Shown: positions 23,766 through 48,567 of the stretch, piece by piece
Layout: each line of letters starts with the position of its first letter
Position numbering within the stretch: position 1 is the first letter of the stretch
Source of the DNA: an uncultured Aestuariivirga sp.
GTDB taxonomy: Bacteria; Pseudomonadota; Alphaproteobacteria; Rhizobiales; Aestuariivirgaceae
Direction of reading: 5' to 3'
Assembly (NCBI GenBank): GCA_964392525.1
Contig: CAYMQH010000002.1
Span: 37,992 to 101,991, forward strand
DNA length: 64,000 bases
Position numbers and translations under genes: made by a program
The notes under the pieces: model-generated
What the model saw: the letters and a program-made list of their open reading frames with translations, nothing else
What the model was told of the DNA's origin: nothing
Databases searched by the model: none

Positions 23766-23919
23766 GTGCCATTTACAATACGAAAGGATGGGCAATTTAC
23801 AACCCCTTCGGATGCCAAAAGGCTGGTTCTTGGAGTGTTTTCAAGTTTCAGCTACCCGGTCATTCTTTCCCCATGCGCACGGGACCCACATCCGGGCGAA
23901 AACAAAATGGGAGAACAAA

Positions 23920-25110: not shown

Positions 25111-25123
25111 GGAGGACACAAGC

Positions 25124-27207: not shown

Positions 27208-27215
27208 GGCGCATC

Positions 27216-27560
27216 ATGATCCATCCCCTCAGCATTGCGATGGAGGCGGGGCACAAGCAGTCGGCCGCAGGCCCGGTGACGATCGTCCCTGACCTGCGCT
27301 CCTACCGCTATGAACCCAAGCCCGGCCGGCTCTCGCCCATGCAGGATCTCGTCGTGCAACTCGTGTGCTGCGGCATGGCCGACAAGGAGATCGCCTTCCT
27401 TCTCGGCCTCAGCAGCGCCACCGTGAAGGCGCACATGTCGCGCGCCATCGCGGAGCTGGGGCTCTACCGCCGCCATCAGCTGGTGCGCTACGTGTTCGAG
27501 AACAACCTCTTCGATCCCGAGCGGGCGCAGGCCGAAATCCTCCGCCGCCGCTCTGCTTGA
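27216..27560 (+). CDS. small LuxR-type HTH protein
   Basis: LSPMQ..GMADKEIAFLLGLSSATVKAHMSRAIAELG; no sensor domain. Confidence 0.7.
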   Translation: MIHPLSIAMEAGHKQSAAGPVTIVPDLRSYRYEPKPGRLSPMQDLVVQLVCCGMADKEIAFLLGLSSATVKAHMSRAIAELGLYRRHQLVRYVFENNLFDPERAQAEILRRRSA

Positions 27561-27582
27561 CATCGCATCTTAAGGAATAATC

Positions 27583-28560
27583 ATGAGCTTCTTTGTAATC
27601 GAGCAGGCGCCCGCGCGCCTCAACCGCAGCGAACTTGCCGTGCCCGGCAGCCAGCCGCACATGTTCGAAAAGGCCGCGAAATCGTCGGCTGACGTCGTGT
27701 TCCTCGACCTGGAGGATGCAGTGGCGCCGGATGACAAGGCGCAAGCCCGCAGGAATATCATTCAGGCCATCGGCGACATCGACTGGGGCAACAAGCAGCT
27801 GTCGGTGCGCATCAACGGCCTCGACACGCACTACATGTACCGCGACGTGGTGGATGTGCTGGAGCAGGCCAGTGACCGGCTCGACCTGATCATGATCCCC
27901 AAGGTTGGTACCGCCTCCGATGTCTATGCGGTGGACATGCTGGTAACCCAGATTGAAGCCGCCAAGAACCGCAAGAAGCGTATCGGCTTCGAACTCATCA
28001 TCGAAACGGCGCTTGGCATGCAGAATGTATCGGCCATCGCCGCGGCCTCCAAGCGCAACGAATCGCTGCATTTCGGTGTAGCCGACTACGCCGCCTCGAC
28101 ACGCGCCCGCACCACCTCGATCGGCGGTGCAAATGCCGACTATGCGGTGCTGACGGAACCGCTGGAGGATGGTTCGCGCCAGACCCACTGGGGTGACATG
28201 TGGCACTACGCCATCGCCCGCATGGTGGTGGCAGCGCGCGCCAATGGACTCCGCCCGGTCGACGGCCCGTTCGGCAATTTTTCTGACCCAGATGCCTTCA
28301 AGGCTGCTGCGCGCCGCGCCGCCGTTCTGGGCTGCGAAGGCAAATGGGCCATCCATCCCTCGCAGATCGCGCTGGCCAATGAGGTGATGAGCCCGTCGGA
28401 AGCGGAAGTGACGCGCGCCCGGCGCATTCTGGATGCGATGAAGGAAGCCGAAGCGCAGGGCAAGGGAGCCGTGTCACTCGATGGCCGCCTGATTGACTAC
28501 GCGTCGATCCGCCAGGCCGAAGTGCTGGTGGACAAGGCCCGGCAAATCGCCGCGCATTGA
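27583..28560 (+). CDS. mcl: malyl-CoA/beta-methylmalyl-CoA lyase
   Basis: RSELAVPGS, FLDLEDAVAPDDK, RINGLDTHYMYRD, EGKWAIHPSQI. Confidence 0.9.
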   Translation: MSFFVIEQAPARLNRSELAVPGSQPHMFEKAAKSSADVVFLDLEDAVAPDDKAQARRNIIQAIGDIDWGNKQLSVRINGLDTHYMYRDVVDVLEQASDRLDLIMIPKVGTASDVYAVDMLVTQIEAAKNRKKRIGFELIIETALGMQNVSAIAAASKRNESLHFGVADYAASTRARTTSIGGANADYAVLTEPLEDGSRQTHWGDMWHYAIARMVVAARANGLRPVDGPFGNFSDPDAFKAAARRAAVLGCEGKWAIHPSQIALANEVMSPSEAEVTRARRILDAMKEAEAQGKGAVSLDGRLIDYASIRQAEVLVDKARQIAAH

Positions 28561-28584: not shown

Positions 28585-29652
28585 TCAGCCCTGGGTGGGC
28601 AGCTTGGCGGCGGCGCGCACCCTGACCGAGGGTGCGACGCCGAAACGCTGGCGATAAGCATGGCGGAACGCCACCGGGGACTGGAAGCCGCAGGCCACCG
28701 CGATTTCGGTGACCGACATATTGGTTTCCGTCATCAGGCTGTGGGCGTGTTCGAGGCGGATGTCGCGCAACTTCTTGGCGGGCGACGTGCCAAGCCGGTT
28801 CTCGAACAGCCGCTCCATCTGGCGGCGCGACAGGCCGTGCCGCTCGGCCAGTTGCTCGATGTCGAGATCGCCCGCGAAGTCAGAGCGCATGTCCTGCAGG
28901 ATCTTGACGAGCGTCGGGTGGCGGAGGCCGATTTCCGCCGCGATTGACATGCGCTGGTTGTTGCTGCCGCCGCGCGGCTGGCCGTGCAGGCACATCTCCG
29001 CCACCTTGGTGGCAAGCCCCGTACCGTGGTGCTCCTCGATCAGGGCGACGACGAGGTCCACCCCGGCATCGCCGCCGCCGCAGGTGATGATGTTGCCGTC
29101 CCGGCAATAGAGCTGGTTGCTGATCGGAAGAGCTGGAAAGATTTCCTCGAATGCGGGTTGGTTCTCCCAGTGGAGCGTGAAGCGCCGGCCCTCGAGAAGC
29201 CCGGCCCGCGCCAGCGTGAAGGCCCCGGTGCACAAGCCGCCCACGGTGCGGCCATGGCGAGCCTGATCCCTGATCCATGAGGTGGTGCGCGGCGAGGCCG
29301 CCAGATAGCCATCGACTCCGGAGCAGACGAATACCGTGTCGTCTCGCTTCGTTTCGCGCAATTCGCCGTCAACGACGATGGACACGCCGTTGGAGCAGCG
29401 CACCGGCTTGCCATCCTCCGAGAGCAGGAACCAGCGATACAGGCACTGGCCCGTCAGCTGATTTGCGATGCGCAGCGGCTCAACCGCCGCCGAGAAGGCG
29501 AGCATCGTCATCTTCGGCAGCATCATGAAGTAAAAATCGCGCCGTGGGCCGGGGCTTTCCAGTTCGAAGAAGGCAGCGCCCTTGCTGACGAAACGCTCGC
29601 GATCCTCGCTGGACACGTTCCGGTCCCCGTCAGCCTGCCCGCGTTGCTCCAT
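28585..29652 (-). CDS. GlxA/GbdR-type AraC regulator (DJ-1 + AraC)
   Basis: EPLRIAN, GLCTG, TLHWE, TCGGG; C-terminal SRRQMERLF..IRLEHA..EIAVACGF. Confidence 0.9.
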   Translation of the reverse strand: MEQRGQADGDRNVSSEDRERFVSKGAAFFELESPGPRRDFYFMMLPKMTMLAFSAAVEPLRIANQLTGQCLYRWFLLSEDGKPVRCSNGVSIVVDGELRETKRDDTVFVCSGVDGYLAASPRTTSWIRDQARHGRTVGGLCTGAFTLARAGLLEGRRFTLHWENQPAFEEIFPALPISNQLYCRDGNIITCGGGDAGVDLVVALIEEHHGTGLATKVAEMCLHGQPRGGSNNQRMSIAAEIGLRHPTLVKILQDMRSDFAGDLDIEQLAERHGLSRRQMERLFENRLGTSPAKKLRDIRLEHAHSLMTETNMSVTEIAVACGFQSPVAFRHAYRQRFGVAPSVRVRAAAKLPTQG

Positions 29653-29735
29653 AACCGAAATCCCGAAATTTGAAATTCCTTTGTATAGTGAGCGGCGTGA
29701 CGTTCTGCAAACCGAACCTGCCGGGGCGCGGCCCG

Positions 29736-30659
29736 TCAGAAGGTCTTCAAGCCGTTCACCGCCAGCCTCACGCCGTAAAGGCAGGAGGTTGCGCAGATAT
29801 AGAGATAGTTCCGCTTCGGGCCGCCGAAACAGACATTGGCAACGGGTTCCGAGATGAGGATCTTGCCGATCAGCGTGCCATCCGGCTCGTAGCAGTGAAC
29901 GCCATCGCCGGCACTCGTCCAGATGCGGCCGTCCTCATCCAGTCGGAAGCCATCGAAGAAGCCGGCGGTTGATTCCGCGAAGATGCCGAGGTCGCTCAGA
30001 ACGCCGCCGCTGCCCACCGTGAAGCGGCGGATATGCCGGGGGCCGTTCTTCACATGGCTGCCGCCGGTGTCGGCGATGTAGAGCAAGCGTTCATCCGCGG
30101 AGAAGGCAAGGCCATTGGGCTGCACGAAGTCATTTGCCACCACCCTGATCTCCCCGCTCTCGGCGTCGATGCGGTAGACATGGTTACCGGCTTGCTCGCG
30201 TTCGGCCTTGTTGCCCTCATAGTCCGAATCGATACCGTAGGAGGGATCGGTGAACCAGATGTTGCCGGCGCGATCCACCACCACGTCATTGGGGCTGTTG
30301 AGCCTCCGGCCGACATGCCGGTCGGCAAGCACCGTGATGCTGCCATCGATCTCGGTCCTGGTGACGCGCCGGTTGCCATGCTCGCAGCTGACGAGGCGGC
30401 CCTGGCGGTCCACCGTGTGGCCGTTCGCATGACCGGCGGGCTGGCGGAACACGCTCACCACGCCGCTGCACTCGTCGTAACGCAGCATCCGGTCGTTGGG
30501 GATGTCGGACCACACGACATAGCGTCCAGCGGGAAAGTAGGCGGCCCCTTCCGCCCAGCGACAGTCATCATGAAGCTTGTCAAGCCTCGCGGTGCTGACG
30601 ATCAGACGCTCGAAGCGATCATCCAGGACCTCGAAGCACCCCATGATCTCGCCAGCCAT
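29736..30659 (-). CDS. SMP-30/gluconolactonase family protein
   Basis: WAEG, WSDIPN, NSPND, FTDPSYG, QPNGLAFS, DGFRLD. Confidence 0.9.
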   Translation of the reverse strand: MAGEIMGCFEVLDDRFERLIVSTARLDKLHDDCRWAEGAAYFPAGRYVVWSDIPNDRMLRYDECSGVVSVFRQPAGHANGHTVDRQGRLVSCEHGNRRVTRTEIDGSITVLADRHVGRRLNSPNDVVVDRAGNIWFTDPSYGIDSDYEGNKAEREQAGNHVYRIDAESGEIRVVANDFVQPNGLAFSADERLLYIADTGGSHVKNGPRHIRRFTVGSGGVLSDLGIFAESTAGFFDGFRLDEDGRIWTSAGDGVHCYEPDGTLIGKILISEPVANVCFGGPKRNYLYICATSCLYGVRLAVNGLKTF

Positions 30660-30725
30660 GCAAACCTCCTCCGGTAGCGGCTGCAAGGTTTGCGGGTTTT
30701 CGCCGCGCGTTCAAGCCCCTTCGCG

Positions 30726-31481
30726 TCAGAGTGCGATGCGGGCAAGTCCGGCATAAAAGGGAAGGTGGTGGGCCAGATAGGCGGCAAAGCGGGGGTGTGC
30801 GGTACTGAGTTGTTCGAATTCCGCGTCGATCTTGCTGCGCTGATCAGCCGTCAAGGGCCGGATCGTGCTGCTCGACATCACATCCTGATGCCAGCCCTGA
30901 ACCTGCTGCCAGTCGGCGGGGGCAGGATCCTTCCAGTGCAGCGCGTCCGGCTTGTCGGGAACCCCAACAGCACGACAGTACTTTCGCATCTGGCCCTCGG
31001 GGTCCGCCTGGACCTCTTCGCTCCTCACGACCACGGGTGCGAGGCTCAGTTGCTTCATCACGGCCTCTGCATGAAGCCACTGCGCCTCGATCCCGATTTC
31101 CTCAAGCAGCATGTCAGGGTCGAGCTTCGCGTAGGACACGATCGAGGCCTTGGGATCGCGGATCAGGAAGCTGTGCGTGATCCGGGCGAAGAAGGCTTCG
31201 TCCGCCGCGATCTGCGGCATCACGTAATAACTCATGTCCTTGAAGAAAACGGGCCCCTTTTCCGCCTTCGCGAGGATCATGGCGCGTATCTCGGCATAAG
31301 CCTTGGGGTGATCCTCCATCGCCTCGAAATATGGCATCTGACGGGTCGAGCGGTTGATGTAATAGTCATACATGAACGGCTCGTGCAGGCATTGCAGGTC
31401 GCCGCGCGCCCGCATGGTGCGTTCGAAGGCGGTGGACATGGAGCGCGGGTGCGACCACAGCGCCACGATCGGAAAGCTCAT
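30726..31481 (-). CDS. sulfotransferase-like P-loop protein
   Basis: LWSHPRSMSTAFER, HEPF, FFKDM, FLIRDP; ATGA overlap with the aminotransferase. Confidence 0.72.
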   Translation of the reverse strand: MSFPIVALWSHPRSMSTAFERTMRARGDLQCLHEPFMYDYYINRSTRQMPYFEAMEDHPKAYAEIRAMILAKAEKGPVFFKDMSYYVMPQIAADEAFFARITHSFLIRDPKASIVSYAKLDPDMLLEEIGIEAQWLHAEAVMKQLSLAPVVVRSEEVQADPEGQMRKYCRAVGVPDKPDALHWKDPAPADWQQVQGWHQDVMSSSTIRPLTADQRSKIDAEFEQLSTAHPRFAAYLAHHLPFYAGLARIAL

Positions 31482-32788
31482 GCCGCCGCCTCGGTGAAGG
31501 CCCGGTCGAGCCCTTCGGCCACCTGATCGACGTCGCTGAGAGCGAGGCACATGGGCGGCACCATGCGCAGCACCGAGCGATGCGGCCCGGACTTGGACAG
31601 AATGAGGCCCTGATCACGGCACTTCTCGAACACGGCAGCGGTGATGGCGGCATCCGGCTCCTTCGTCTTGCGGTCCTTCACCATTTCAATGGCCAGCATG
31701 AGGCCGCGCCCGCGTACATCGCCGATCGCCATGTGGCGCTGCTGCAGGCTCTTCAGCCGGTCAAGCAATGCACCGCCCACCTTGCGGGCGTTGTCCTGCG
31801 TCTTCTCCTCGCGGATCACCTGCAACACGGCGCGGCCCGCCGCACAACTGGTCGGATTGGCGCCATAGGTGTGGAACATGTACTTCTCCGCCATGACATC
31901 TCCGATGGCCTTCTTCGCCACCACAGCACCCAGAGGGAAGCCATTGCCGATGCCCTTGGCCATCACCACGATGTCAGGCACCACGCCATCGGCCTCGAAG
32001 CCCCACATGTTGTCACCCGTGCGGCCAAAACCTGACTGCACTTCATCGGCCACATAAAGGCCTCCTGCGGCACGCACCCGTTCGGCCGCGCCCGACATGT
32101 AACCCTTCGGCATTTCGACGATGCCGCCATAGCCCTGTACGCTCTCGACGAAGATGCCGGCCACCTTGCCCGTGGTCGCGGTGGCGATGGTGCGCTCGAT
32201 CTCGTCGAGATAGGGCTCGGTGACGGCGCCGAAAATGCCGCGATACTGGTTTGGCTCCGGCACGAAGGCCACGTTGGCCGGCATGCCGGTGTGGCGGAAG
32301 CCGGCAATGCCGGTCAGTGACTGCGCCGCCGAGGTCGGCCCGTGATAGGCGGAACGGAGCGCGAGGAGGTCGAGGTTACCGGTGTAGGTGCGCGCCATTA
32401 CCATGGCGAGGTCGATCGCCTCTGAGCCCGAGTTGGTGAAATGCACCACCCAGTCATGGCCCTTCGGCATGGTGGCGGCCAGTTCCTCGGCGAAATGTGC
32501 CGGAACCGGATGGTAGAACATGGTGGTGCAGTGGGTGAGTTCCTGCGCCTGTTGCATCGCTGCCTTCACGACTGCCGGGTGTGAGTGCCCGACCGAGATG
32601 CAGACATTCATGCCGAGCAGGTCGGTGTATCTCTTGCCTTCCGCATCCCAGAGATACTGCATTGCGCCCTTGCGGAACACCAAAGGCTCCCGGAATGGCA
32701 CGAATTTTCGCTGCGAGGCGGCATAGAATTGAGTCCGGCGGGCGGCGGTGGCCTCTGTCGACCAATCGATATCGAGCGCGTCTTTCAT
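31478..32788 (-). CDS. class III PLP aminotransferase (AGXT2-like)
   Basis: YLWDAEG, NSGSEA, ESVQG, DEVQSGFGRTG, MAKGIGNG, GRGLM. Confidence 0.9.
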   Translation of the reverse strand: MKDALDIDWSTEATAARRTQFYAASQRKFVPFREPLVFRKGAMQYLWDAEGKRYTDLLGMNVCISVGHSHPAVVKAAMQQAQELTHCTTMFYHPVPAHFAEELAATMPKGHDWVVHFTNSGSEAIDLAMVMARTYTGNLDLLALRSAYHGPTSAAQSLTGIAGFRHTGMPANVAFVPEPNQYRGIFGAVTEPYLDEIERTIATATTGKVAGIFVESVQGYGGIVEMPKGYMSGAAERVRAAGGLYVADEVQSGFGRTGDNMWGFEADGVVPDIVVMAKGIGNGFPLGAVVAKKAIGDVMAEKYMFHTYGANPTSCAAGRAVLQVIREEKTQDNARKVGGALLDRLKSLQQRHMAIGDVRGRGLMLAIEMVKDRKTKEPDAAITAAVFEKCRDQGLILSKSGPHRSVLRMVPPMCLALSDVDQVAEGLDRAFTEAAA

Positions 32789-32810
32789 GGCGTATCCTTC
32801 GAGTGCGGAG

Positions 32811-35216
32811 TTAGTCCTTGAGCCTTGTGTTCAGCGGGTCATAAGGGGGCGAGGCGAGTATGCGCGCCGGGCGCTCGCGCCCCAGCAGCTTGACTGTCAG
32901 CCCATCGCGAACCTGCGGCTCGCGCAGGAAGGCAAGAGCGAGGGATGTCTTCACGCGATGGCCATAGGCACCCGATGTCACCACGCCAACGGGGCGGCCC
33001 TGCGCAAACAGCGTGTGGGAATAGAAGGGCTCCACCTCGCCATCGGTGTCGATTTCGAGCAGCACCATGTCCCAGCTGGGTGGTCGCTTGAGCATGGCAT
33101 CGCGGCCAATGAAACTGCGGCCCTCGGGCTTCACGAGGAAGCCGAGGCCTGTTTCAGGCGGCGAGCGTTCGGTGGTGAGATCGCTGCCCCAACCGCGATA
33201 ACCCTTTTCCAGCCGCATGGAGTTTGCGGCATAAGCGCCATAGTACCCGATGCCGAAAGGCTTTCCGGCCTCTTCCAGCACAAGGAACAGCTTTGCGGCC
33301 TGGGCCCGCTCCACATGCAGTTCGAAGCCGCGTTCCCCAACATAGGAAACCCGCAGCGCTTGGGCTCGAACGCCAGCGACTGTGATCTCCCGCGCCGACA
33401 GCCAGGGGAAGCCATGGCCCAGGTCCGCATCTGTCAGCTTCTTCAGCACATCGGGTGATCTTGGTCCCATCAGGCCGATGACCGCCAGATCATCCGTGCG
33501 GTTGCGGATCACCACATCGAAACCCTCCGCACGGGCATTCAGGAGGTCGAGGTCCATCTCCTCGGCTGCTGCAGCCGAGTTGAGATAGGCGCGGTCCGGT
33601 GCGAATACCGTAACGGTGAATTCGGAGGCAACGCCGCCCGCAGGTGTCAGGGCGTGCGTCAAGCCGATGCGCCCGGGCTTCGGCGGGCTATTGGCGCCTA
33701 GCGCATCGAGGAAGCGGAGCGTGTCAGGCCCCGTTACATCGAACTTGGAGAAGACCGAGAGATCGGCCAGCGCCACGCGGTTTGCGACTGCATCCACTTC
33801 GCGGGCCACCGCGTCAAACCAGTTGGTGCGCCGGAAGCTGTCGCGGTTTTCATCATGAAGATTGGTCGAAAACCAGTTGGGCCGCTCCGCGCCGTGCGCA
33901 GCGCCCATCACGGCACCGCGCTCGCGCATGATGTGATGCAGCGGCGAGACGCGGATCATGCGGCCCGCCCGGCGTTCCTCGAAGGGGAAATGCACGCCGA
34001 ATTGCAGACCGAAACATTCGATCGCCTTGTTGACACGGTAGCTCCGGTTTGCCCACGGGCCGAAGCGGCGGCTGTCGACGGCCAGTGCGTCCATCGGCGG
34101 CGCGCCATGTGTCATCCAGTGGGCGAGGAACTGTCCGGATCCGCCGCCCTCCATCACACCCATGGAGGAGCCGGTCAGCAGCCACGCATTGGGGACGCCG
34201 AACGCCGGGCCGATCAGCGGATTCGCATCCGGGGTGAAGGTGATGGGGCCATTGACCACCGTCTTGACGCCCGCAGTGGCAAGGGCCGGAACCCGCGCCA
34301 TGGCGGCTTCGATGATGTGTTCCACGCGGTCGAGATCGGGCGGCATCAGCTCCGCGCCGAAATCAGGCGGCACACCATCGACCGACCAGACCTGCGCCTG
34401 CTTCTCATAGGGGCCGAGAATGAACCCATCGCGCTCCTGGCGGCAGTACCAGCTTTCTTCGGGGTCGCGGATGATGGGCAGTTCAGGCGCGCCTGACTTT
34501 TGGCGCGCGGCAATGGCTGCCACCGTATCGGTGACCAGATACTGGTGCAGCACGGGCACCGAGGGCACATTCACGCCCATCATCTGCCCCACCTCGAAGC
34601 CCCATGTTCCTGCGGCATTGACGATGTGCAGAGCCTTCAACACGCCGGTCCTGGTTTCCACCACCCAGCGGCCGTTTTCGCGGCGGATGGCGTGGACCGG
34701 GTTGTAGCGCTGGATCACCGCGCCATGGCGCTGCGCCACCCTTGCCATCGCATTGGTGGCAAGCGAGGGGTCCACATGCCCGTCATCGGGCTCATAGATG
34801 CCGCCCAGCAGGCCATCCAGTTCGGCGAGCGGGTGAAGCTCCGCAATGCGCGTCCGGTCGATGATCTCGAGTGGGTAACCGGTGAATTCGGAAAGGCCAG
34901 CGACATGGCGGAACTCGTCCATGCGGTCGGGATTGCGTGTGACGCGCATCGCGCCCGAGCGGTGGAAGCCACAGCTTTCGCCCGTCTCCTGCGGAAGGAT
35001 GTCGCGGTAGAGGCGCACCGATGTGGCGCGCAGTTCCTGAATGGTGGGGTTATGGGCAAAATGCGTGCAAAGCCCCGCGGCATGCCAGGTGGAGCCATGC
35101 GTCAGGTCGTTCTTCTCCACCAGCACGATATCGCGCCAGCCCGCCTTGGCCAGATGATAGAGCAGCGACACGCCCATGGCGCCGCCGCCGATGATGGCGA
35201 CATTCACATCCGTCAT
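32811..35216 (-). CDS. FAD-dependent GcvT-family dehydrogenase (dimethylglycine dehydrogenase-like)
   Basis: IIGGGAMG, GSTWHAAG, FTPD, DLSVFSK, SYVGERGFE, RLEKGY. Confidence 0.9.
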   Translation of the reverse strand: MTDVNVAIIGGGAMGVSLLYHLAKAGWRDIVLVEKNDLTHGSTWHAAGLCTHFAHNPTIQELRATSVRLYRDILPQETGESCGFHRSGAMRVTRNPDRMDEFRHVAGLSEFTGYPLEIIDRTRIAELHPLAELDGLLGGIYEPDDGHVDPSLATNAMARVAQRHGAVIQRYNPVHAIRRENGRWVVETRTGVLKALHIVNAAGTWGFEVGQMMGVNVPSVPVLHQYLVTDTVAAIAARQKSGAPELPIIRDPEESWYCRQERDGFILGPYEKQAQVWSVDGVPPDFGAELMPPDLDRVEHIIEAAMARVPALATAGVKTVVNGPITFTPDANPLIGPAFGVPNAWLLTGSSMGVMEGGGSGQFLAHWMTHGAPPMDALAVDSRRFGPWANRSYRVNKAIECFGLQFGVHFPFEERRAGRMIRVSPLHHIMRERGAVMGAAHGAERPNWFSTNLHDENRDSFRRTNWFDAVAREVDAVANRVALADLSVFSKFDVTGPDTLRFLDALGANSPPKPGRIGLTHALTPAGGVASEFTVTVFAPDRAYLNSAAAAEEMDLDLLNARAEGFDVVIRNRTDDLAVIGLMGPRSPDVLKKLTDADLGHGFPWLSAREITVAGVRAQALRVSYVGERGFELHVERAQAAKLFLVLEEAGKPFGIGYYGAYAANSMRLEKGYRGWGSDLTTERSPPETGLGFLVKPEGRSFIGRDAMLKRPPSWDMVLLEIDTDGEVEPFYSHTLFAQGRPVGVVTSGAYGHRVKTSLALAFLREPQVRDGLTVKLLGRERPARILASPPYDPLNTRLKD

Positions 35217-37609
35217 GCACGCATCCTTCGTGACTCGGGGTCATGTGGCGGCTTCATGAGAACCGCCGCTTGGTAGGTTGATCCGGCCACCTCCAGCGCG
35301 AAGTCACGTTGCGCTGTTTGTGCCAGTGTTTCACCGGGGCGTATGTTCACCAGAGCGAATGCAAGCGTGAGGCCAGTGCGAAGCCCCTTCGCGCCAGATG
35401 TGGTGAGCCCCGCGACCCTGCCGTTCTCCCAAACGGGTTCATCATGAAGAATGAGCGGATCGCCAGCGATGCTGAGCAGAACGAGGCGCTGGCCGTAGCC
35501 ATGCTGCTTCTGCCGTTCGAGAACAGATTTGCCACGGAATGGCTTGGCCCAGTCGATGGCAAATCCGAGCCCTGCCTCGAGTGGGGTAATCTCCGGCCCG
35601 AGGTCATGGCCCCAGTGGCGGTAGCCCTTTTCGATACGGCAGCCATTCAGCGCATGATGGCCCATGGGCTTCGCACCAGCCTCGATCAGCGCGTCGAAAA
35701 CCTGCGGCGCGGATTCATTGGACATCATGACTTCCCAGCCAAGTTCGCCCACATAGGAAAGCCGGGTGGCAAGGCATGGCTCGCCCGCCACAGTCACTTG
35801 CCGCGCCGTGCTGAAGGGGAAATCCCCCCAGTCATCGGGTGATCGAGAAGACAGCATGCGGCGCGACGCAGCGCCCATCACACCGATCACGCAGAAGTCT
35901 TCCGTTCGGTCTTCAAGCGTGATGTCCATCCCCGCCGCGGCACGGCGGAGCAGCGCCAGGTCACGCCGCCGGGTAGCAGCGCCTGACACGACACGGAAGC
36001 GATCCTCCGCAAGGCGCGTCACCGTCACATCAGCCTCGATGCCGCCCTTGCCGTTCAGCATCAGCGTATAGACGGCGCGGCCCAGGGACACATCCATCTG
36101 CGCCGTGGCAAGGTGATTGAGTAGCCGAAGCGCATCGCTTCCTGAAACATCAATCTTGGTGAAGGGCGTGAGGTCGAGGAGTGCCGCGCCATCCATCATC
36201 TCCGCCGCCTCGCGCTTGGCGATGGAAAGCCATGGCTGGTCGCCGCTGACGGCATAGGGCAGGCCGCGTTCGGCGTCCTGCGTTGCATACCAAAGGCCGC
36301 GCTCCCAGCCGACGGTGAGGCCGAACACCGCGCCTTGCGCCGCCCAGTGCTCATGCAGCGGAGACTTGCGCAAGCCTCGGCCGGCCTTTGGCTGCTTGAA
36401 CGGCCAGTGCACGGCGAACAGGTCAGCCACGGCTTCCTGCATCCGCTCCGCCATGTGGGCGTCAGTTGCGGTAAGGGGGTCAACACGGGCGATGTCCACG
36501 CCCCATAGGTCGCGCGGTTCTTCGCCGCCGATGATCCAGTCGGCCAGAATGTCACCGATCCCTGCGGAGCTCATGATGCCGACCGAGTTCATGCCCGCCG
36601 CGACGAATATCCCATCCACTTCCGGCGCCTGCCCGATCAGGGGCCGCGTGTCGGCGGTGAAGCTTTCCGGCCCATTCATGAAGCGCTGGATGCCGGTATC
36701 TGCCAGTGCGGGAACGAGTGCCAGAGCTGCTGCCATGAAGGGGCCGAACTGCTCCCAGTCCTCTGGCAGTTCGAGGAAGGCACGGTCACCCTCCGGCCCA
36801 TAAGCGTTCCACAGCTTTGCATTGGGCTCGAAGCCGCCGATGACGAGGCGGCCCGCATCGCCCTTCACATAGATGCCGGTATCGAGATCGCGCACCACGG
36901 GGAAGGGGTTGGCGAGGCCGGGGATCGGTTCCGTCACGATATACATGTGCTCCACCGCCTGCAGCGGCAGCGCAACGCCAATGTCATCCGCCAGCTTCTT
37001 CGACCACGCCCCGGCGCAGAGCACCACCGTCTCCGCCAGCATGACTGTGCCATCGGCGAGTTCAACGCCGGTCACACGGCCCCTGGCGGTGAGGATGCGC
37101 GCAACGCCCACCCCTTCCCGGATGCTTACGCCATGAGCCTTCGCAGCGCGCGCATAGGCCATGCAAAGATCGACCGGATTGACGTTGGCGTCCTCCGGCA
37201 CCATCAGGGCGCCCACATGCTGCCTTACATCAAGCTCCGGAACGGCAACCTGGCCGGGCGTCACGATGGATGGCGTCAGCCCCATGTGGCGGCCCACCGC
37301 GCAGATGCGCTTCAGCTCATCCATGCGTTCGGGAAGTCGTGCCAGCCAGTAGCCGCCGGTGCGGCGGTAGCCGGTGCTCATGCCGGTTTCTTCTTCCAGT
37401 TCAGGAAAGAGTGTCAGCGCGTGGGAGGCGAGCCGCGTCATGCTGGCGGTTGCCCGCAATGGCCCGACAATGCCCGCCGCATGCCAGCTGGTGCCGGAGG
37501 TGAGCTGGTTGCGCTCCAGCAGCGTCACGTTCTGTGCGCCGCGCTTGCCGAGGTGATAGGCAAGACTCAGGCCAACAGCACCACCGCCGATGATGAGGAT
37601 ATCCGGCAT
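35213..37609 (-). CDS. FAD-dependent GcvT-family dehydrogenase (sarcosine/dimethylglycine dehydrogenase-like)
   Basis: IIGGGAVG, GTSWHAAG, GPESFTAD, SYVGELGWE, RIEKGYRHW. Confidence 0.9.
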   Translation of the reverse strand: MPDILIIGGGAVGLSLAYHLGKRGAQNVTLLERNQLTSGTSWHAAGIVGPLRATASMTRLASHALTLFPELEEETGMSTGYRRTGGYWLARLPERMDELKRICAVGRHMGLTPSIVTPGQVAVPELDVRQHVGALMVPEDANVNPVDLCMAYARAAKAHGVSIREGVGVARILTARGRVTGVELADGTVMLAETVVLCAGAWSKKLADDIGVALPLQAVEHMYIVTEPIPGLANPFPVVRDLDTGIYVKGDAGRLVIGGFEPNAKLWNAYGPEGDRAFLELPEDWEQFGPFMAAALALVPALADTGIQRFMNGPESFTADTRPLIGQAPEVDGIFVAAGMNSVGIMSSAGIGDILADWIIGGEEPRDLWGVDIARVDPLTATDAHMAERMQEAVADLFAVHWPFKQPKAGRGLRKSPLHEHWAAQGAVFGLTVGWERGLWYATQDAERGLPYAVSGDQPWLSIAKREAAEMMDGAALLDLTPFTKIDVSGSDALRLLNHLATAQMDVSLGRAVYTLMLNGKGGIEADVTVTRLAEDRFRVVSGAATRRRDLALLRRAAAGMDITLEDRTEDFCVIGVMGAASRRMLSSRSPDDWGDFPFSTARQVTVAGEPCLATRLSYVGELGWEVMMSNESAPQVFDALIEAGAKPMGHHALNGCRIEKGYRHWGHDLGPEITPLEAGLGFAIDWAKPFRGKSVLERQKQHGYGQRLVLLSIAGDPLILHDEPVWENGRVAGLTTSGAKGLRTGLTLAFALVNIRPGETLAQTAQRDFALEVAGSTYQAAVLMKPPHDPESRRMRA

Positions 37610-39144
37610 CAGAAGTAATTCACGTCTGGCATGGAGGCTTTCACCTCCCGGATATAGTCCTTCAGCGCCTCATCAATGGCGGGGTCGAGGCCGGGGTCCT
37701 GGTAGCTTTCAAGCTGCGTCTTCCACAATGCATTGGCCCGCTGTGCTGCATCCTTGCTGCCTTCGGCCTGCCATTGCTCGAAGGAGTTGTTGTCAGCTGT
37801 GAGCGGGCGGAACATGGCGGACATGAAATTGAGCCGCGTGTGCTCGCTGCCGAGGAAGTGCTGCCCCGGCCCCGTCTCGGCAATTGCAGCCATGGCCTGC
37901 GCATTCTCCGAGAGGTCGATGCCGTCGAAGAAGCGGGCCAGCTTGCCGCAGAGATCAGCGTCGATCATCGTCTTCTCGAAGGAGGTGACGAGCCCGCCCT
38001 CCAGCCAGCCTGTCGCGTGGTTGATCAGATTGGCGCCTGCAAACATCGACATCATCAAGCCCCAAGTCGCCTCCTGCTGGCTTTGTGCATCGGGAAGCTT
38101 GGCGGCTGAGAGTGTGCCCACAGTGTGGAACGGCACGCCGAGGCGACGTGCCAGTTGCCCTGCGGCCAGAACCATCAGCCCCGCCTCGGGCGTGCCGAAA
38201 GTGGGGGCGCCTGACTGCATGGACATGGTGGAGGCGAAGCTGCCCATGAGGCAGGGCGCGCCGGGATTGATAAGCTGCACGAGGGCGAGGCAGGCGGTCG
38301 CCTCCGCCAGCACCTGCGCCAGCGTTCCGGCAATTGTCGTTGGGCTCATGGCGCCTGTCAGCACCCAGGGCGTGCAGGCCACGGGCTGCCTGGCGCGTGC
38401 ATAGGTCTTGAGGGCGCCTGACATGTTTGCGTCCAGCACCAGCGGCGCGTTGGTGTTCGACACGCAATAGAGCACCGGGTTCTGGGCTACATAATCCGCT
38501 CCGAACAGGATGCGGGCCATGTCGATGGCGTGGCCGGCGCGCTCTGCACCGATAAAGGCGCCCATGAAGGCGCGGTCCGACCAGCGGATATGGGCATAGA
38601 GCATGTCGAGGTGGCGCTTGTTGGCGGGAAGGTCCACCGGTTCGCACACCACGCCGCCCGAATGGTGCAGCCACGGAATGGTCTGATGCAGCTTCACCAG
38701 GTCGATGAAATCCCTGTGTGACGCATAACGCCGCCCGCGATCAAGGTCGTGCACGAAGGGCGGCCCCCATGAGGGGCAAAGAACGGTGGCATTGCCGCCA
38801 AGCCTCACGCTGTTGTTTGGGTTCCGCGCATGTTGCATGAACGCGCGCGGGGCTGTTGCCTGAATCGTGTTGCGGCAGAAGCCTGGGTCAAAGCGTACGC
38901 GCGTTTGGCGCACGTCGCATCCGGCGGCGCGGAAGATATCGAGGATTTCAGGATCGCCCTGAAACTCCATGCCAGTGTCCTTGAGGATCGTCTCGGCATT
39001 TGCCTCGATCAGTTCAAGCCCTTCGCGGCTCAGCACGCTGTAGGTTTCCATCTGGCGCGAGATGTAGGGCGTGCGCATCACCTCCGCGGTGGCACCCGCA
39101 CTGCCGGAACGGTTGCGGCGGCGTGGGAGTAGGGTGTCATTCAT
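37609..39144 (-). CDS. trimethylamine methyltransferase (MttB) superfamily protein, non-pyrrolysine
   Basis: VVCEPVDLP..RHLD, GAMSPTT, SMQSGAPTFGTPE, DAQ..E, GWLEGG; no in-frame amber codon. Confidence 0.9.
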   Translation of the reverse strand: MNDTLLPRRRNRSGSAGATAEVMRTPYISRQMETYSVLSREGLELIEANAETILKDTGMEFQGDPEILDIFRAAGCDVRQTRVRFDPGFCRNTIQATAPRAFMQHARNPNNSVRLGGNATVLCPSWGPPFVHDLDRGRRYASHRDFIDLVKLHQTIPWLHHSGGVVCEPVDLPANKRHLDMLYAHIRWSDRAFMGAFIGAERAGHAIDMARILFGADYVAQNPVLYCVSNTNAPLVLDANMSGALKTYARARQPVACTPWVLTGAMSPTTIAGTLAQVLAEATACLALVQLINPGAPCLMGSFASTMSMQSGAPTFGTPEAGLMVLAAGQLARRLGVPFHTVGTLSAAKLPDAQSQQEATWGLMMSMFAGANLINHATGWLEGGLVTSFEKTMIDADLCGKLARFFDGIDLSENAQAMAAIAETGPGQHFLGSEHTRLNFMSAMFRPLTADNNSFEQWQAEGSKDAAQRANALWKTQLESYQDPGLDPAIDEALKDYIREVKASMPDVNYF

Positions 39145-39207
39145 GCAAAAAGGCCTGTCGGTCAGCAATAGCCTATCTTGCGCGAAAACCCGGTTGACTG
39201 AAAGGAG

Positions 39208-39224
39208 CATAAGTACTTCTAATG
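39208..39224. promoter_or_regulatory. LysR box (T-N11-A)
   Basis: CATAAG-N5-CTAATG between the divergent MttB and LysR genes. Confidence 0.55.
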
Positions 39225-39232
39225 GTGCCGAT

Positions 39233-40222
39233 ATGCGAAAATCAGCCATCAAGACAGCCGCGCAGTCCGGGTCCAATCTGATCCGCGCGATGGAGGTGTT
39301 CGAGGCCGTTGCCGAAACTGGTCAGATGACGGCGGCCGCGCGCCTGCTTGGCATGACACAGTCCGCTGCCTCCCAGCACATCGCCGCACTCGAGAAGGAC
39401 TATGGCGTCGTGCTGTTCGACCGGTCGGTCAGGCCTGCCCGGCTCACGCAGGCGGGTACGCTGCTTCATCGCCATGCCGCGCGCATCCTGAATGTGGTGG
39501 GTGACCTGGAAACCGAGATGCGCCATCAGGGTCCGGTGCCGATCAGCGTTCTCCGCCTCGGCATTCTCGCTTCGATTGCAACGACGCTCACCCCCGGCCT
39601 GGTGGCGCTGGCGAAGAAGGGCTTCGGCGTGCGCGATGTGACCTTGCATGCCGGCCAGAGCGGCGACCATGAAAACCTGCTGCGCACGAAGAAGGCGGAT
39701 CTCGCGATAACGTCGAATCCGTTCTACGACATGGACGGGCTGGAGCGGCACCCGATCCTGCAAGAGGCCTTTCTGCTGGTTCTGCCGGATAAGTACCGAG
39801 GCCCCACCGGAAGCCTGCAAGAGGTGCAGAGCCGACTGCCACTGATCCGCTTTGCCGATACCACCAGCGTCGGACGCCAGATCACCCAGCACCTCCGCCG
39901 CCTGCGGCTCAACCCGCAGCAGGTGATTCAGGCTGACAGGTCATCGATGGTCACGGCCTGCGTGTGCAATGGCATGGGGTTCACGCTGCTGACACCCTCC
40001 CTGCTGATTGACGGCTTCGTGGAGCGCATGCCGATGAGAGTGATGCCGCTGCCTGCGGCACGGCTCACGCGCACCTTGACGGTCGTCTCGCGCGAGAGGG
40101 AGTTGGGCAAATTTCCCGCGCATGTCGCTGATCTCTCGCGCCGCAAACTTGTTGAACAGGTCGGGGCGCAGATGGGCGATGTTGGGCTTGCCGCGCTCAC
40201 CCTGATGGAGGGGGCTGGGTGA
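39233..40222 (+). CDS. LysR-family transcriptional regulator
   Basis: MTAAARLLGMTQSAASQHIAALE..LFDR..LTQAG wHTH, plus substrate-binding domain. Confidence 0.92.
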   Translation: MRKSAIKTAAQSGSNLIRAMEVFEAVAETGQMTAAARLLGMTQSAASQHIAALEKDYGVVLFDRSVRPARLTQAGTLLHRHAARILNVVGDLETEMRHQGPVPISVLRLGILASIATTLTPGLVALAKKGFGVRDVTLHAGQSGDHENLLRTKKADLAITSNPFYDMDGLERHPILQEAFLLVLPDKYRGPTGSLQEVQSRLPLIRFADTTSVGRQITQHLRRLRLNPQQVIQADRSSMVTACVCNGMGFTLLTPSLLIDGFVERMPMRVMPLPAARLTRTLTVVSRERELGKFPAHVADLSRRKLVEQVGAQMGDVGLAALTLMEGAG

Positions 40223-40331
40223 GGTCTGTGTATAGTGGGGTGATCCGTGCTGCGGCATGAAGGGGATATGCTTCCAGGTTGGAAGCCATTAGGATGAATT
40301 TCCGAATTTGGACGTGCTGAGAGAGGCGGAT

Positions 40332-41552
40332 ATGCCGGTCGAAGAAATTGACACGCTGGTGATTGGTGGCGGCCAGGCCGGCCTTGCGATGAGCGGGCAT
40401 CTGGGCGCGCGGGGCGTGCCTCACCTCGTTTTGGAGCGCAAGCGGATTGCCGAGCGCTGGCGCTCCGAGCGTTGGGATTCGCTCGTCGCCAATGGTCCTG
40501 CCTGGCATGATCGTTTCCCGGCGCTGCAATTCAACTGCGGGCCGGATGAGTTTGCCACGCGCGATGAGATCGTTGAATATCTCGAGACGTTTGCAAAGCA
40601 AGTCAACGCGCCCATCCGTACCGGGGTTGAGGTAACCGCCCTGCACAAAACCGCCGATGGCTTCCGTGCTGAAACCGCTGAGGGTGTGATCGCGGCTAGA
40701 AATGTGGTGGCCGCCACGGGGCCGTTCCAGCGCCCGCTCATTCCAACCGTCGTTCCGGCCGACACCGGGATCCTGCAGATTCACTCGTCGCAATACCGCA
40801 ACCCCCGTCAGTTGCCGGAGGGGGCTGTGCTGGTGGTGGGGGCCGGATCATCCGGCACGCAGATTGCCGATGAGTTGCATCGCGCCGGCCGCCGCGTCTA
40901 TCTTTCCGTTGGCCCGCATAACAGGCCGCCGCGGAGCTATCGCGGCAAGGATTTCGTGTGGTGGCTTGGCGCGCTCGGCAAGTGGGATGCAAAGACCATC
41001 ACACCGGGCATGGAACATGTCACCATCGCGGTGAGCGGCGCCTATGGCGGCCACACGGTGGATTTCAACCGGCTTGGCCAGCGCGGCATCACGCTGCTCG
41101 GCCGGGCCGGGGCCTACCGTGATGGTGTGCTGCATTTCGCGGGCGACGTGAAGGAGAACATCGCAGGCGGCACCAGGGACTATCTCTCGGTTCTCGATGA
41201 GGCGGATGCTTACATTGCCAGGAACGGCCTTGACTTCCCCGAGGAGCCGGATGCCCGCCGGACCGACCCCGATCCCGAGTGCGTCAGCAATCCGATCCGT
41301 GAACTCAGTCTGAAGGAGGCCGGCATCACCTCCATCATCTGGGCGACCGGCTATGCGCTGGATTTCGGCTGGATCAAGTGCGACGCCTTTGACGACAAGG
41401 GCCGCCCGGCGCATGAGCGCGGCGTCTCGAAGGTGCCGGGGCTTTATTTCCTCGGCCTGCCGTGGCTGTCACGCCGCGCTTCGCCCTTCATCTGGGGCGT
41501 TTGGCATGACGCCGACTATCTCGCCGGTCACATCGCCGCCAGAACGCCCTGA
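40332..41552 (+). CDS. FAD/NAD(P)-dependent flavoprotein monooxygenase-like oxidoreductase (CzcO-like)
   Basis: [41 protein letters not shown]. Confidence 0.85.
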
Positions 41553-43300
41553 GCGAGGCCCGCCGCATCAAGCCCGGCATCGGCATATTGCTCGGCGGGA
41601 GAGCCATGGGCGATAAAGCGGTCGGGCAGGGTCAGGGCGCGGAAGCGCGTCTTCATCAGCAGGTCATGCGCGGCGAGATGGTGCAGCACATGGGCGGAAA
41701 AACCGCCCGCCGCGCCCTCCTCGACCGTTACCAGCAGGCGATGATGGCGGGCGAGGTTCTCGATGAGTGCCGTATCGAGCGGCTTGGCAAAGCGCGCATC
41801 CGCGATGGTGGCCCTGATGCCCTTCTGCGCCAGAAGATGCGCGGCCTCCATGCAGGCCTCAAGACGATTGCCGAGTGACAGGATGGCCACATGCTCACCC
41901 TCGGAGATGATACGGCCCTTGCCGATCTCCAGCGGGCGCATTTCATCTGGCACGTCGGTTCCCGTTGCCTCGCCGCGCGGGTAGCGGAAGGCGATGGGGC
42001 CCTCGTCATAGGCAATGGCGGTGGCCAGCATGCGGCGCAGTTCTTGCGCGTCGGATGGCGCCATTGCCACCATGCCCGGCAACAGCGAGAGATAAGCAAG
42101 ATCAAAGGAACCGGCATGGGTTGCGCCATCCTGTCCGACAAGGCCCGCACGGTCGATGGCAAAGCGCACCGGCAGGCGCTGCAGCGCCACATCATGCACC
42201 ACCTGGTCGAAGCCGCGCTGCAGGAAGGTGGAGTAGATGGCGCAAACGGGCTTCAGCCCCTCGCTGGCAAGCCCCGCAGCGAAGGTCACGGCATGCTGCT
42301 CGGCGATGCCGACGTCGAATGTGCGGGCGGGAAAATGCTGGCCGAAGATATCGAGCCCGGTGCCCGAGGGCATGGCGGCGGTGATGGCGACAACCCGCTC
42401 GTCCCTTGTGGCTTCGGCGATCAGTGCCGAGGCGAAGACCTTGGTGTAAGTTGGCGCATTGGCCTTGGCCGACTTGAATTCGAGCGTGTCGGGATCGAAG
42501 CCGGAAATGGCGTGGTAGTTTTCCTTGTCGGGCTTGGCGAAGGGGTGCCCCTTGCCCTTCTCCGTCACCATGTGGATGAGCACAGGCGCTGCATCGGGAG
42601 AATCCCTCAGCGCGCGCAAGGTGTGAACCAGCCCGATCACATCATGCCCGTTTACCGGGCCGATGTGACGAAAACCCAGCGCCTCGAACAGGCTCGGCAA
42701 CTTTCCCTGCCGCAAAGCCTTCAGGTGTCGATCGAGTGCACCGACAGCAGGGGCGATGGACATGCCATTGTCATTGAGGATGACGATCAGCCGGCTACGC
42801 AGGCTTCCGGCATGGTTCAGCCCCTCGAAGGCCATGCCGCCAGTCATGGCGCTGTCGCCGATCACCGCGATGACGTGGTTGGCGCCACCTTTGAGATCGC
42901 GCGCCACTGCCATGCCAAGCCCTGCCGAAATGGATGTCGAGCTATGGCCCGCGCCGAACGGATCAAAGCTGCTTTCGCTGCGCTTGGTGAAGCCATAGAG
43001 GCCGCCCTTCTGGCGGATGGAACGCAGCGCCCCGCGACGGCCAGTCAAGACCTTGTGGGGATAGGCCTGGTGGCTCACATCCCAGATCACGCGGTCATGC
43101 GGCGTGTCGAACACATAATGCAGCGCTGCAGTCAGCTCGATGACGCCGAGGCCGCTGCCGAAATGGCCGCCGGTTTCGGCAGCGGCCGCAATGATCTCGG
43201 CACGCAGTTCGTCCGCGAGCTGTGGAAGATCTTCGATGTCAAGCTGTCGCAGGGCTTCAGGTGTTGGCGTGCGGTCGAGGAGGGGGGTCGGTTGCTTCAT
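41528..43300 (-). CDS. dxs: 1-deoxy-D-xylulose-5-phosphate synthase (short form)
   Basis: [57 protein letters not shown]. Confidence 0.9.
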
Positions 43301-43489
43301 TCCGTCACCAGTCGCGGCGTTTTGTGACACTAACCTGTTGCCATGGCCTTTTCCACCGGAAAGCGCTTGGCCACCGGCCTTGGCTCTGCCGGGCTGCGGC
43401 GATCCGCCGTCAGGGCTTTCGCAGCCTGCCCGACCTGTCTAGAAGGAAAGCTCGGTTTCGTTTCAGGGGCAGGCGGAGGGCAGCGGGCC

Positions 43490-48530: not shown

Positions 48531-48567
48531 ATTGCGCGAAGCCTTTAAAAGGCCTAGGAAATTTCTC

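Follow-up and report, generated by a model that had tools for sequence, protein, structure and literature searches.

A His-type MttB methyltransferase in a conserved LysR-controlled operon with two N-methyl dehydrogenases and an AGXT2-type enzyme: candidate for the complete demethylation and deamination of a quaternary amine other than glycine betaine

Which methylated amine is degraded by an operon that joins a methyltransferase of the MttB superfamily to two flavoprotein dehydrogenases and a pyridoxal phosphate (PLP) enzyme is the question raised by a stretch of 64,000 nucleotides from an uncultured Aestuariivirga sp. (contig CAYMQH010000002.1 of assembly GCA_964392525.1; hereafter the window). 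The MttB family is very large, yet only six specificities are known in the superfamily, and it was not until 2025 that aerobes were recognised to carry out cobalamin-dependent demethylation. The module at 30726-40222 is, with fair confidence, a self-contained, horizontally mobile and LysR-controlled catabolic operon. Equally fair confidence attaches to its general role: it would strip three N-methyl groups, the first with cobalamin and the next two with flavin and tetrahydrofolate (THF), and then the amino group from a substrate other than glycine betaine. Every enzyme type involved is already known; what is new is an MttB specificity class with dedicated downstream enzymes and, with a smaller chance, genuinely new chemistry in the form of a sulfation-assisted deamination. 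The domain assignments, the coupling of the genes, the conservation of the module and its active-site signatures are shown here, whereas step order, trans-acting partners, substrate and the purpose of sulfation are inferred. The genes of the module are as follows.

37609-39276 (probable start at 39144), minus strand: MttB-superfamily methyltransferase (PF06253, E-value 8.8e-195)
35213-37609, minus strand: dehydrogenase DH1 (domains DAO, FAO_M, GCV_T and GCV_T_C)
32811-35216, minus strand: dehydrogenase DH2 (DAO, FAO_M, GCV_T and GCV_T_C, in the architecture of DH1)
31478-32788, minus strand: class III PLP enzyme (Aminotran_3, 3e-87)
30726-31481, minus strand: sulfotransferase of the type using 3'-phosphoadenosine-5'-phosphosulfate (PAPS) (Sulfotransfer_5, PF19798, 9e-15)
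39233-40222, plus strand, divergent: LysR-family regulator (HTH_1 and LysR_substrate)

The five genes from the methyltransferase to the sulfotransferase are tightly coupled on the minus strand. The MttB and DH1 genes overlap in TGATG, the DH1 and DH2 genes as well as the stop of the PLP enzyme gene and the start of the sulfotransferase gene overlap in ATGA, and the gap of 22 nucleotides between DH2 and the PLP enzyme contains a GAAGGA ribosome-binding site. For LysR, an alternative start at 39290 and a mechanical open reading frame (ORF) from 39071 were noted. Domain profiles and overlaps bear out the genes and the translational coupling described in an earlier note, which had been made on this DNA from its sequence. 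Likewise, corrinoid-binding, methyl-THF-transferase and RamA domains were absent from the scanned ORFs of at least 200 amino acids, which account for most of the window, in agreement with the note's remark on missing corrinoid and activator genes; the quaternary-amine stripping line that it had called complete is not complete within the window. Neither a cobalamin riboswitch nor any other Rfam family was found in the window, and terminator-like sites in it did not exceed shuffled controls.

Conservation of the module was assessed by a locus scan with one genome per species, which yielded 80 loci encoding relatives of the window MttB. Proteins 64-89 % identical to it were treated as orthologues and those of at most 58 % as paralogues, and counts were made over 39 non-redundant orthologous loci. 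In about 34 of these 39 loci the genes for MttB, DH1, DH2 and the PLP enzyme adjoin, an association far above chance, and DH1 adjoins MttB or DH2 in nearly all of them. The module occurs in at least four gene orders and in two proteobacterial classes, Alpha- and Gammaproteobacteria: most orthologous loci have MttB-DH1-DH2-PLP enzyme, Mesorhizobium and others have PLP enzyme/LysR/DH1-DH2-MttB, and several Gammaproteobacteria have the PLP enzyme gene divergent from MttB-DH1-DH2. Its core is described by a LysR gene, present with about 24 of the 39 loci, divergent from MttB-DH1-DH2-PLP enzyme and often joined by the sulfotransferase, and the module usually stops right after one of the latter two genes. 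It is carried on a plasmid in Mesorhizobium and adjoins a transposase gene in a bryozoan-associated gammaproteobacterium (locus L004). Carriers comprise the Roseobacter group, Hyphomicrobiales, sponge- and bryozoan-associated Gammaproteobacteria and freshwater bacteria, from habitats as different as the sea, freshwater, groundwater, soil (including soil plasmids) and invertebrate hosts of symbionts; the window organism, with Aestuariivirga as its closest named relatives, is found in freshwater, groundwater and estuary metagenomes. Ruegeria-like RNA-seq contigs, which are unstranded and may include DNA carry-over, cover the module, one of 4.4 kb spanning MttB-DH1-DH2 and another DH2 and the PLP enzyme gene. 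The paralogous MttB genes reside in separate loci with a single dehydrogenase and no such PLP enzyme. No description of this gene combination or of its MttB subgroup was found in the searchable literature.

A first clue to the substrate is provided by the methyltransferase. Its uninterrupted ORF lacks an in-frame UAG, covers profile positions 5-500 of 500 in PF06253 and has Leu at the pyrrolysine position of 7xcl, and the protein classes by sequence with the non-pyrrolysine MttB superfamily; it matches PDB entry 4yyc from S. meliloti at 2.7e-176 and MtgB at 1e-99. MtgB of Desulfitobacterium hafniense binds glycine betaine through cation-pi interactions with Y97 and F356 and through R312 and H348 at the carboxylate (PMC13080624). 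The salt bridge of R312 to the acid group is kept in MtcB, MtpB, MthB and MtyB, and the substrates of the R312 enzymes, including proline betaine, carnitine, gamma-butyrobetaine and phosphocholine, are all acidic (PMC13080624). In the window protein the positions of Y97, F356, R312 and H348 are occupied by W126, G384, H340 and H376, only H348 being kept. An alignment of this protein and 45 orthologues (n = 46) against 41 paralogues including 4yyc, complemented by motif counts in 120 database homologues, revealed Trp at position 97 in 42 of the 46 orthologues versus Tyr in 41/41 paralogues, His at position 312 in 46/46 versus Arg in 41/41, and Asn at position 347 (N375 in the window) in 46/46 versus Leu in 41/41. 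Further changes specific to the orthologues are H153, W260 and K401; Gly at the F356 position is found in the orthologues, but also in the Arg-type paralogues. These His-type enzymes represent a distinct subgroup, diagnosable from sequence by Trp/His/Asn replacing Tyr/Arg/Leu. Since three of the four glycine betaine-binding residues of MtgB are changed, a substrate other than glycine betaine, as already proposed in the earlier note, is indicated. Beyond this, the invariant replacement of Arg312 by His points to a non-acidic substrate, as 7xcl, a pyrrolysine-containing methyltransferase for trimethylamine (which has no acid group), carries Tyr at this position and is the sole other known case without Arg. 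The simplest reading is that the subgroup does not use a carboxylate, and particularly not glycine betaine.

That no corrinoid genes were found in the window does not speak against this function, because aerobic proteobacteria share MtgC and MtgD in trans; in Ruegeria pomeroyi the genes for both lie away from mtgB, and the two proteins serve methionine synthesis as well (PMC12478193). The MtgBCD(E) system of this marine aerobe resembles the present module in several respects, i.e. a non-pyrrolysine MttB-family enzyme in an aerobic proteobacterium, a corrinoid protein and a methyl-THF transferase that are encoded elsewhere and shared (predicted for the module), and enzymes of the dimethylglycine dehydrogenase (DMGDH) type for the next demethylations (PMC12478193). 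Unlike MtgB, the window MttB belongs to a separate subgroup of at most 58 % identity to the Arg-type paralogues, lacks the carboxylate Arg and the Tyr of the aromatic pair, and is a fixed part of an operon that also encodes two dehydrogenases, an AGXT2-type enzyme and, often, a sulfotransferase.

Both dehydrogenases comprise about 800 residues and are 35 % identical to each other. DH1, the more divergent paralogue (about 31 % identity to rat DMGDH), matches human DMGDH (5l46) at 2.6e-116 and possesses the covalent-FAD motif SWHAAG as well as the dyad His and Tyr, while DH2 (about 41 % identity) matches rat DMGDH (4p9s) at 2.4e-195, shares WHAAG with DH1, and has a dyad H225/Y259 that aligns with the conserved His/Tyr of dimethylglycine oxidase (DMGO). 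With the four domains, the covalent-FAD His, the catalytic His/Tyr dyad and the THF-binding GcvT domain of DMGDH, sarcosine dehydrogenase and Arthrobacter DMGO, they are predicted to be covalent-FAD, THF-dependent N-methyl dehydrogenases of the DMGDH/DMGO family with complete folate-binding domains. Overall identity to rat DMGDH does not separate DH2 from the single dehydrogenases beside Arg-type MttB paralogues, which are equally similar to it, and is therefore uninformative on the DH2 substrate. Three positions do separate 37 DH2 orthologues from a DMGDH-like set. One of them is the position of human H109, which is Arg (Arg63 in DH2) in 37/37 orthologues versus His in 12 of the 13 DMGDH-like proteins including the rat enzyme (Ala in DH1). 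In addition, the DH2 loop GVMEGGG has Glu where rat DMGDH and DMGO have His. In human DMGDH, H109 lines the substrate tunnel, into which the variant H109R intrudes, raising the Km for dimethylglycine 16- to 23-fold (PMC5082570). DH2 thus departs from dimethylglycine dehydrogenase proper at H109 and in the GxxxHxGG loop, DH1 by its low identity, and both by their tie to an MttB for a substrate other than glycine betaine.

A flavoenzyme of another type is encoded outside the operon at 46398-48449 (minus strand, next to a TetR gene at 48532-49194, plus strand). This protein of 683 residues has an OYE/FMN plus NAD(P)-binding architecture as in DgcA, trimethylamine dehydrogenase and FadH, with its best NCBIfam match under the cut-off. 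A 51 %-identical homologue directly follows an Arg-type MttB paralogue in a deltaproteobacterial metagenome-assembled genome (MAG; L047, 5100-7148), which suggests the type to be another partner demethylase for MttB enzymes.

The PLP enzyme belongs to the class III sub-clade of AGXT2, ETNPPL, PHYKPL and A1RDF1 (36-49 % identity), which contains aminotransferases as well as phospho-lyases. Its best-scoring solved relatives are two proven lyases, human ETNPPL (5.8e-87) and the Arthrobacter phospho-lyase A1RDF1, and its best NCBIfam matches are kinase-lyase fusions; the window enzyme, ETNPPL and A1RDF1 are roughly equidistant, with 40 % (window-ETNPPL), 36 % and 40 % identity. At 24 positions where the two lyases agree, however, all or nearly all of 37 orthologues differ, and at 9 of them the window enzyme agrees with AGXT2. 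For instance, His gives way to S65, Arg to M90, MGKPMGNGH to MAKGIGNGF and Lys to R408; S65, M90, AKGIGNGF and R408 are found in 37/37 orthologues. Hence the common lyase residues (His preceding VGH, Arg within T-x-(S/T)-R, GKPMGNGH and Lys of VLK), of which the His, Arg and Lys may bind phosphate, are missing. In their place, AGXT2 features are present, namely the Schiff-base motif MAKGIGNGFP, Arg in (F/L)R(I/M)xPPMC and a hydrophobic residue at position 90. Identity amounts to 41-44 % with animal AGXT2 and to 48-49 % with bacterial proteins annotated as alanine-glyoxylate or 3-amino-2-methylpropionate-pyruvate transaminase, the AGXT2 references being those so named by public sources and one match being 100 % identical to the query fragment. 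The enzyme is therefore of the AGXT2 type and probably a true aminotransferase acting on the fully demethylated primary amine, in line with its earlier description as a class III aminotransferase. Specific to the orthologues are two conserved basic residues, R319 and H306, the latter adjoining the Thr to which the PLP phosphate is bound; these and the coupling to a sulfotransferase rather than a kinase distinguish it further from AGXT2 and the lyases. The signature leaves room for the elimination of a far better leaving group such as sulfate.

The proposed demethylation and deamination chemistry leaves the sulfotransferase unexplained. The 5'-PSB motif HPRSMST is invariant across 23 aligned homologues, and R108 and S116 of the 3'-PB motif R-x7-S occur in at least 90 % of them. 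A sequence search against the PDB gave no match. The AF2 model (pLDDT 89) was assigned by Foldseek, with a probability of 1.00, to the fold of TPST, CurM ST and Stf0, and olefin-synthase (OLS) and heparan 3-O sulfotransferases also match at low identity. By motifs and modelled fold the protein is classed as a PAPS-dependent sulfotransferase; public annotation of its homologues reads only "hypothetical" or "sulfotransferase-like". Considered incidental at first, the gene is part of the module in 12 of the 39 orthologous loci, and in all further contexts looked up (homologues of at least 54 % identity; L088-L091) it is again within the module, with a 4-nucleotide overlap with the end of the PLP enzyme or DH2 gene. 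It is thus a dedicated and indeed the most distinctive component of the module, and its strict confinement there implies sulfation of the substrate or of an intermediate, at a hydroxyl or, with lower probability, at an amine. Sulfate is installed as a leaving group by the CurM and olefin-synthase enzymes, with which the protein shares fold and PAPS motifs, and such a logic therefore has precedent; the fold similarity to these activating enzymes is remote (TM 0.44-0.59, 13-16 % identity). In L090 (2536-3462) and L091 (1535-2461) the gene directly follows DH2 and precedes an EamA-family transporter gene. Two Sulfotransfer_5 paralogues stand beside the module in Arenicellales (L042, 3547-7216; also L043), together with genes for a glutathione-dependent formaldehyde-activating enzyme, a homocysteine S-methyltransferase (MtgE/BHMT-like) and a protein of 416 residues without family match.

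Taken together, these features are best accommodated by the removal of all N-methyl groups and then of the amino group from a quaternary amine that is hydroxylated and non-acidic, choline being the leading candidate; this reading is held at about even confidence. In a first step, the His-type MttB would move one methyl group from the quaternary ammonium to a Co(I) corrinoid protein, from which a methyl-cobalamin:THF methyltransferase would hand it to THF, both partners being encoded elsewhere like MtgC and MtgD of aerobic Rhodobacterales. DH1 and DH2 would then oxidise the tertiary and subsequently the secondary amine, passing the C1 units to THF as 5,10-methylene-THF, and the AGXT2-type enzyme would finally take off the remaining primary amino group to yield an aldehyde. 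For choline the course would run via dimethylethanolamine and methylethanolamine to ethanolamine. The sulfotransferase would esterify the substrate hydroxyl, for which two purposes are conceivable: the sulfate might leave in an elimination by the PLP enzyme, turning ethanolamine-O-sulfate into acetaldehyde, ammonia and free sulfate, or choline might be branched off into choline-O-sulfate. Three demethylations followed by transamination had been put forward in the earlier note; conservation of the module as a unit and the AGXT2 signature suit this scheme, while its completeness within the window did not hold. Choline or a close hydroxylated analogue is suggested by the loss of Arg312, the dedicated O-sulfotransferase, scattered choline-related genes and the occurrence in marine, freshwater and soil habitats. 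Such genes near the module encode a BCCT transporter in Ruegeria, an OpuA/ChoXWV-type ABC system in Mesorhizobium, and UgpB plus a glycerophosphodiesterase (GDPD) in a Chromatiales bacterium; other scattered neighbours are GlpK (glycerol kinase; two loci only) and BetA-like, PotABCD-like and PhnS2-like systems. The substrate-binding protein of the Mesorhizobium OpuA-type system has remote similarity only to ProX, OpuAC and ChoX and is uninformative. A shared transporter or downstream dehydrogenase was also sought by neighbourhood enrichment, but the flanks are heterogeneous, with no family in more than 6 of 108 neighbouring proteins.

Several points weigh against choline. The substrate assignment draws on residue patterns and on choline-related neighbours that are scattered and not conserved, and only one precedent exists for equating Arg312 loss with a non-acidic substrate. 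In MttB, an anion could instead be bound by the new basic residues H153 and K401, and Arg63 in the DH2 cavity as well as H306 and R319 in the PLP enzyme would go with an anion, for instance a longer carboxylate or an ester of sulfate or phosphate. With a sulfotransferase gene in only about one third of the loci, this enzyme may be peripheral, and PAPS is costly to spend in a catabolic route. To our knowledge, ethanolamine is not a substrate of AGXT2.

Should the direct demethylation of choline hold, it would constitute an aerobic route opposite in direction to phospholipid N-methylation and would give widespread bacteria of water and soil an alternative to the BetA/BetB route that depends on B12. 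That the resulting ethanolamine is O-sulfated and then subjected to AGXT2-like sulfate elimination, yielding acetaldehyde and ammonia, is a tentative extension and improbable on balance; if true, this pairing of a sulfotransferase with a "sulfo-lyase" would do with sulfate what kinase-phospholyase pairs do with phosphate, possibly analogous to the fusions PRK06148 and PRK06149 in matching a transferase that makes a leaving group with an elimination-capable enzyme. Searchable literature contained nothing relevant on ethanolamine sulfate or on a choline sulfotransferase in bacteria. Irrespective of the compound, assigning the substrate would add a route by which methylated amines provide C1 units, nitrogen and possibly sulfate to aquatic and soil food webs with no release of trimethylamine, would widen the known cobalamin dependence of aerobic heterotrophs, and could bring to light a new catabolic use of sulfation; since several cultured strains carry the module, among them Falsiruegeria mediterranea CECT 7615, Ruegeria atlantica CECT 4292, Aestuariivirga litoralis and Mesorhizobium sp. 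B1-1-8 and B2-7-1, the question is directly testable.

Among the alternatives, a carboxylate betaine longer than glycine betaine, the class named in the earlier note, survives best and is nevertheless unlikely. It would mainly be beta-alanine betaine, degraded via beta-alanine to malonate semialdehyde, or else gamma-butyrobetaine or carnitine, giving GABA or 4-amino-3-hydroxybutyrate. AGXT2 enzymes, judged by annotated names, use beta-alanine and beta-aminoisobutyrate, and the PLP enzyme is of this type and retains the carboxylate-binding Arg408; the gain of Arg63 in the DH2 cavity, the nearby BCCT and OpuA-type transporters and the hydroxyl that carnitine would offer to the sulfotransferase agree with this class as well. 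In Falsiruegeria and Tropicibacter (L002, 7861-8913; also L009 and L012), the LysR gene overlaps at its end with a gene for a TauD-family dioxygenase. The NCBIfam matches of this enzyme are only weak and C-terminal, to gamma-butyrobetaine dioxygenase and the trimethyl-AEP dioxygenase TmpA, and it may supply the module by hydroxylating a trimethylammonium compound; its weak BBOX/TmpA-like similarity and linkage to LysR would likewise fit a carboxylate. The MttB signature speaks to the contrary, as the characterised MttB enzymes for carboxylate betaines, including gamma-butyrobetaine and carnitine, all keep Arg312 (PMC13080624) and this subgroup never does, and the loss of this acid-binding residue makes the named carboxylates the less likely class. 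Furthermore, beta-alanine betaine would present no acceptor to the sulfotransferase, no malonate- or succinate-semialdehyde dehydrogenase is conserved nearby, and the PLP enzyme is without the GabT-type Arg for a distal carboxylate (YHGP). On the catabolism of beta-alanine betaine nothing relevant was found in the searchable literature. Proline betaine, also suggested earlier, is chemically incompatible, since three demethylations cannot convert it to a primary amine.

Somewhat more doubtful is an ester-activated choline, i.e. choline-O-sulfate (made by the sulfotransferase or imported) or phosphocholine, demethylated three times and then cleaved by the PLP enzyme as a lyase to acetaldehyde, ammonia and sulfate or phosphate. 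A model is available in the anaerobe Eubacterium limosum, in which MthB demethylates phosphocholine once the kinase MthK has activated choline (PMC12155760). This MthB/MthK/MthC/MthA system and the module would have in common an MttB-family enzyme for a choline-derived substrate (proposed here) and an accessory enzyme derivatising the hydroxyl; in E. limosum, only one methyl group is removed (PMC12155760) and MthB retains Arg312 (PMC13080624), whereas the module has a sulfotransferase instead of a kinase, His312, two more demethylases and a PLP enzyme leading to an aldehyde. Favourable to an ester are the lyases and kinase-lyase fusions among the best matches of the PLP enzyme, the translational coupling of the sulfotransferase to the PLP enzyme or DH2, the new basic residues (H153 and K401 in MttB, R63 in DH2, H306 and R319 in the PLP enzyme) and the PhnS2-like, UgpB and GDPD genes near some loci. 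The counter-evidence is that MthB keeps Arg312 for the phosphate (PMC13080624), where His is found here, that no MthK-type choline kinase or other kinase lies in the module, be it in the window or in the 39 loci, that two thirds of the loci lack the sulfotransferase, and that the PLP enzyme is without the lyase His/Arg/Lys and GKPMGNGH, a strong objection to the phosphate version and a lesser one to the sulfate version. The sequence from phosphocholine via phosphoethanolamine to a phospho-lyase reaction was downgraded, because the PLP enzyme is devoid of every residue common to the two proven lyases and matches AGXT2 instead.

Plain glycine betaine catabolism, with an MtgB-like enzyme, dimethylglycine and sarcosine dehydrogenases to glycine and an AGXT2-type enzyme to glyoxylate, is highly improbable and was rejected as an ordinary glycine betaine operon: although DH2 is about 41 % identical to rat DMGDH, as are its counterparts next to Arg-type MttB genes, glycine and glyoxylate are interconverted by AGXT2, and glyoxylate/serine-cycle genes adjoin the operon in the window, the orthologues carry Y97W (42/46), R312H and F356G (the Gly being found in Arg-type paralogues too), the Arg-type paralogues form separate loci with one dehydrogenase and no aminotransferase, glyoxylate formation from glycine by transamination is unfavourable on thermodynamic grounds, the adjacency to serine-cycle genes does not recur in the orthologous loci, and DH2 naturally carries the equivalent of H109R, the human variant with the raised Km (PMC5082570).

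As to the control of the proposed amine-stripping operon, two elements were recognised between the divergent LysR and MttB genes.

39208-39224: putative LysR-type binding dyad (window copy ATTAG-N5-CTTAT; on the operon strand CATTAGAAGTACTTATG)
39192-39198: second intergenic element, GTCAACC, 9-12 nucleotides from the dyad (GTCAATTG in relatives)

The dyad is of the T-N11-A type of LysR-controlled operons. Its consensus ATTAG-N5-CTAAT is kept in more than 10 orthologous LysR-MttB intergenic regions, at the equivalent place in L001, L006, L007, L009, L011, L012, L024, L025 and others, which confirms the divergent LysR gene and LysR box reported earlier. The second element, GTCAA(TTG), is positionally kept in more than 10 of these regions, too, and may be an activation site or a -35 region. 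Orthologues of LysR (61-89 % identity) are divergent from MttB in about 24 loci.

Some loci deviate from the common gene set. In two Rhodobacteraceae (L014, 16341-18802; L023, 16304-18387) the module is without the PLP enzyme and goes on with a small ORF of about 125 residues and a gene for an AidB-like acyl-CoA dehydrogenase. On a long metagenomic contig (L088, 1601-6491), DH1 and DH2 were called as several fragments (DAO and GCV_T pieces), which could be due to assembly frameshifts or to real decay.

Downstream of the sulfotransferase gene, the window continues with two further genes on the same strand.

29736-30659, minus strand: SMP-30/gluconolactonase-like protein (SMP-30/SGL, PF08450, 1.6e-44)
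28585-29652, minus strand: GlxA/GbdR-like AraC regulator (HTH_18 and DJ-1_PfpI)

Both had been listed with the coupled genes in the earlier note. No homologue of SMP-30 was found in any of the 39 orthologous loci, and the regulator, whose GbdR match of 290 bits is under the GbdR cut-off of 480, is absent from them and occurs only near some paralogue loci. To the left of the operon (23788-28560), genes for a class V aminotransferase, a two-subunit CoA ligase and an HpcH-type lyase resemble sga-mtkAB-mcl of the serine cycle, at the domain level only. Since no serine-cycle homologue adjoins the module in any of the 39 loci, the position "beside the serine cycle", stressed before, is a local accident. 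The SMP-30, GlxA/GbdR-like and serine-cycle genes are neighbours in this window only and not members of the module. On the other side, next to LysR, the region 40308-44521 encodes an MSMEG_0569-family flavin oxidoreductase (357 bits, cut-off 498), DXS (41528-43330, minus strand, 739 bits to TIGR00204) and a GFO/IDH/MocA dehydrogenase and is followed by a xanthine/uracil-type permease gene, none of these neighbours being conserved with the module. A sigma-54 activator, acetoin-dehydrogenase-like E1 and E2 proteins (transketolase-type and lipoyl/alpha-beta-hydrolase) and a sugar-type ABC transporter, encoded at 5192-16480, are unrelated to the operon.

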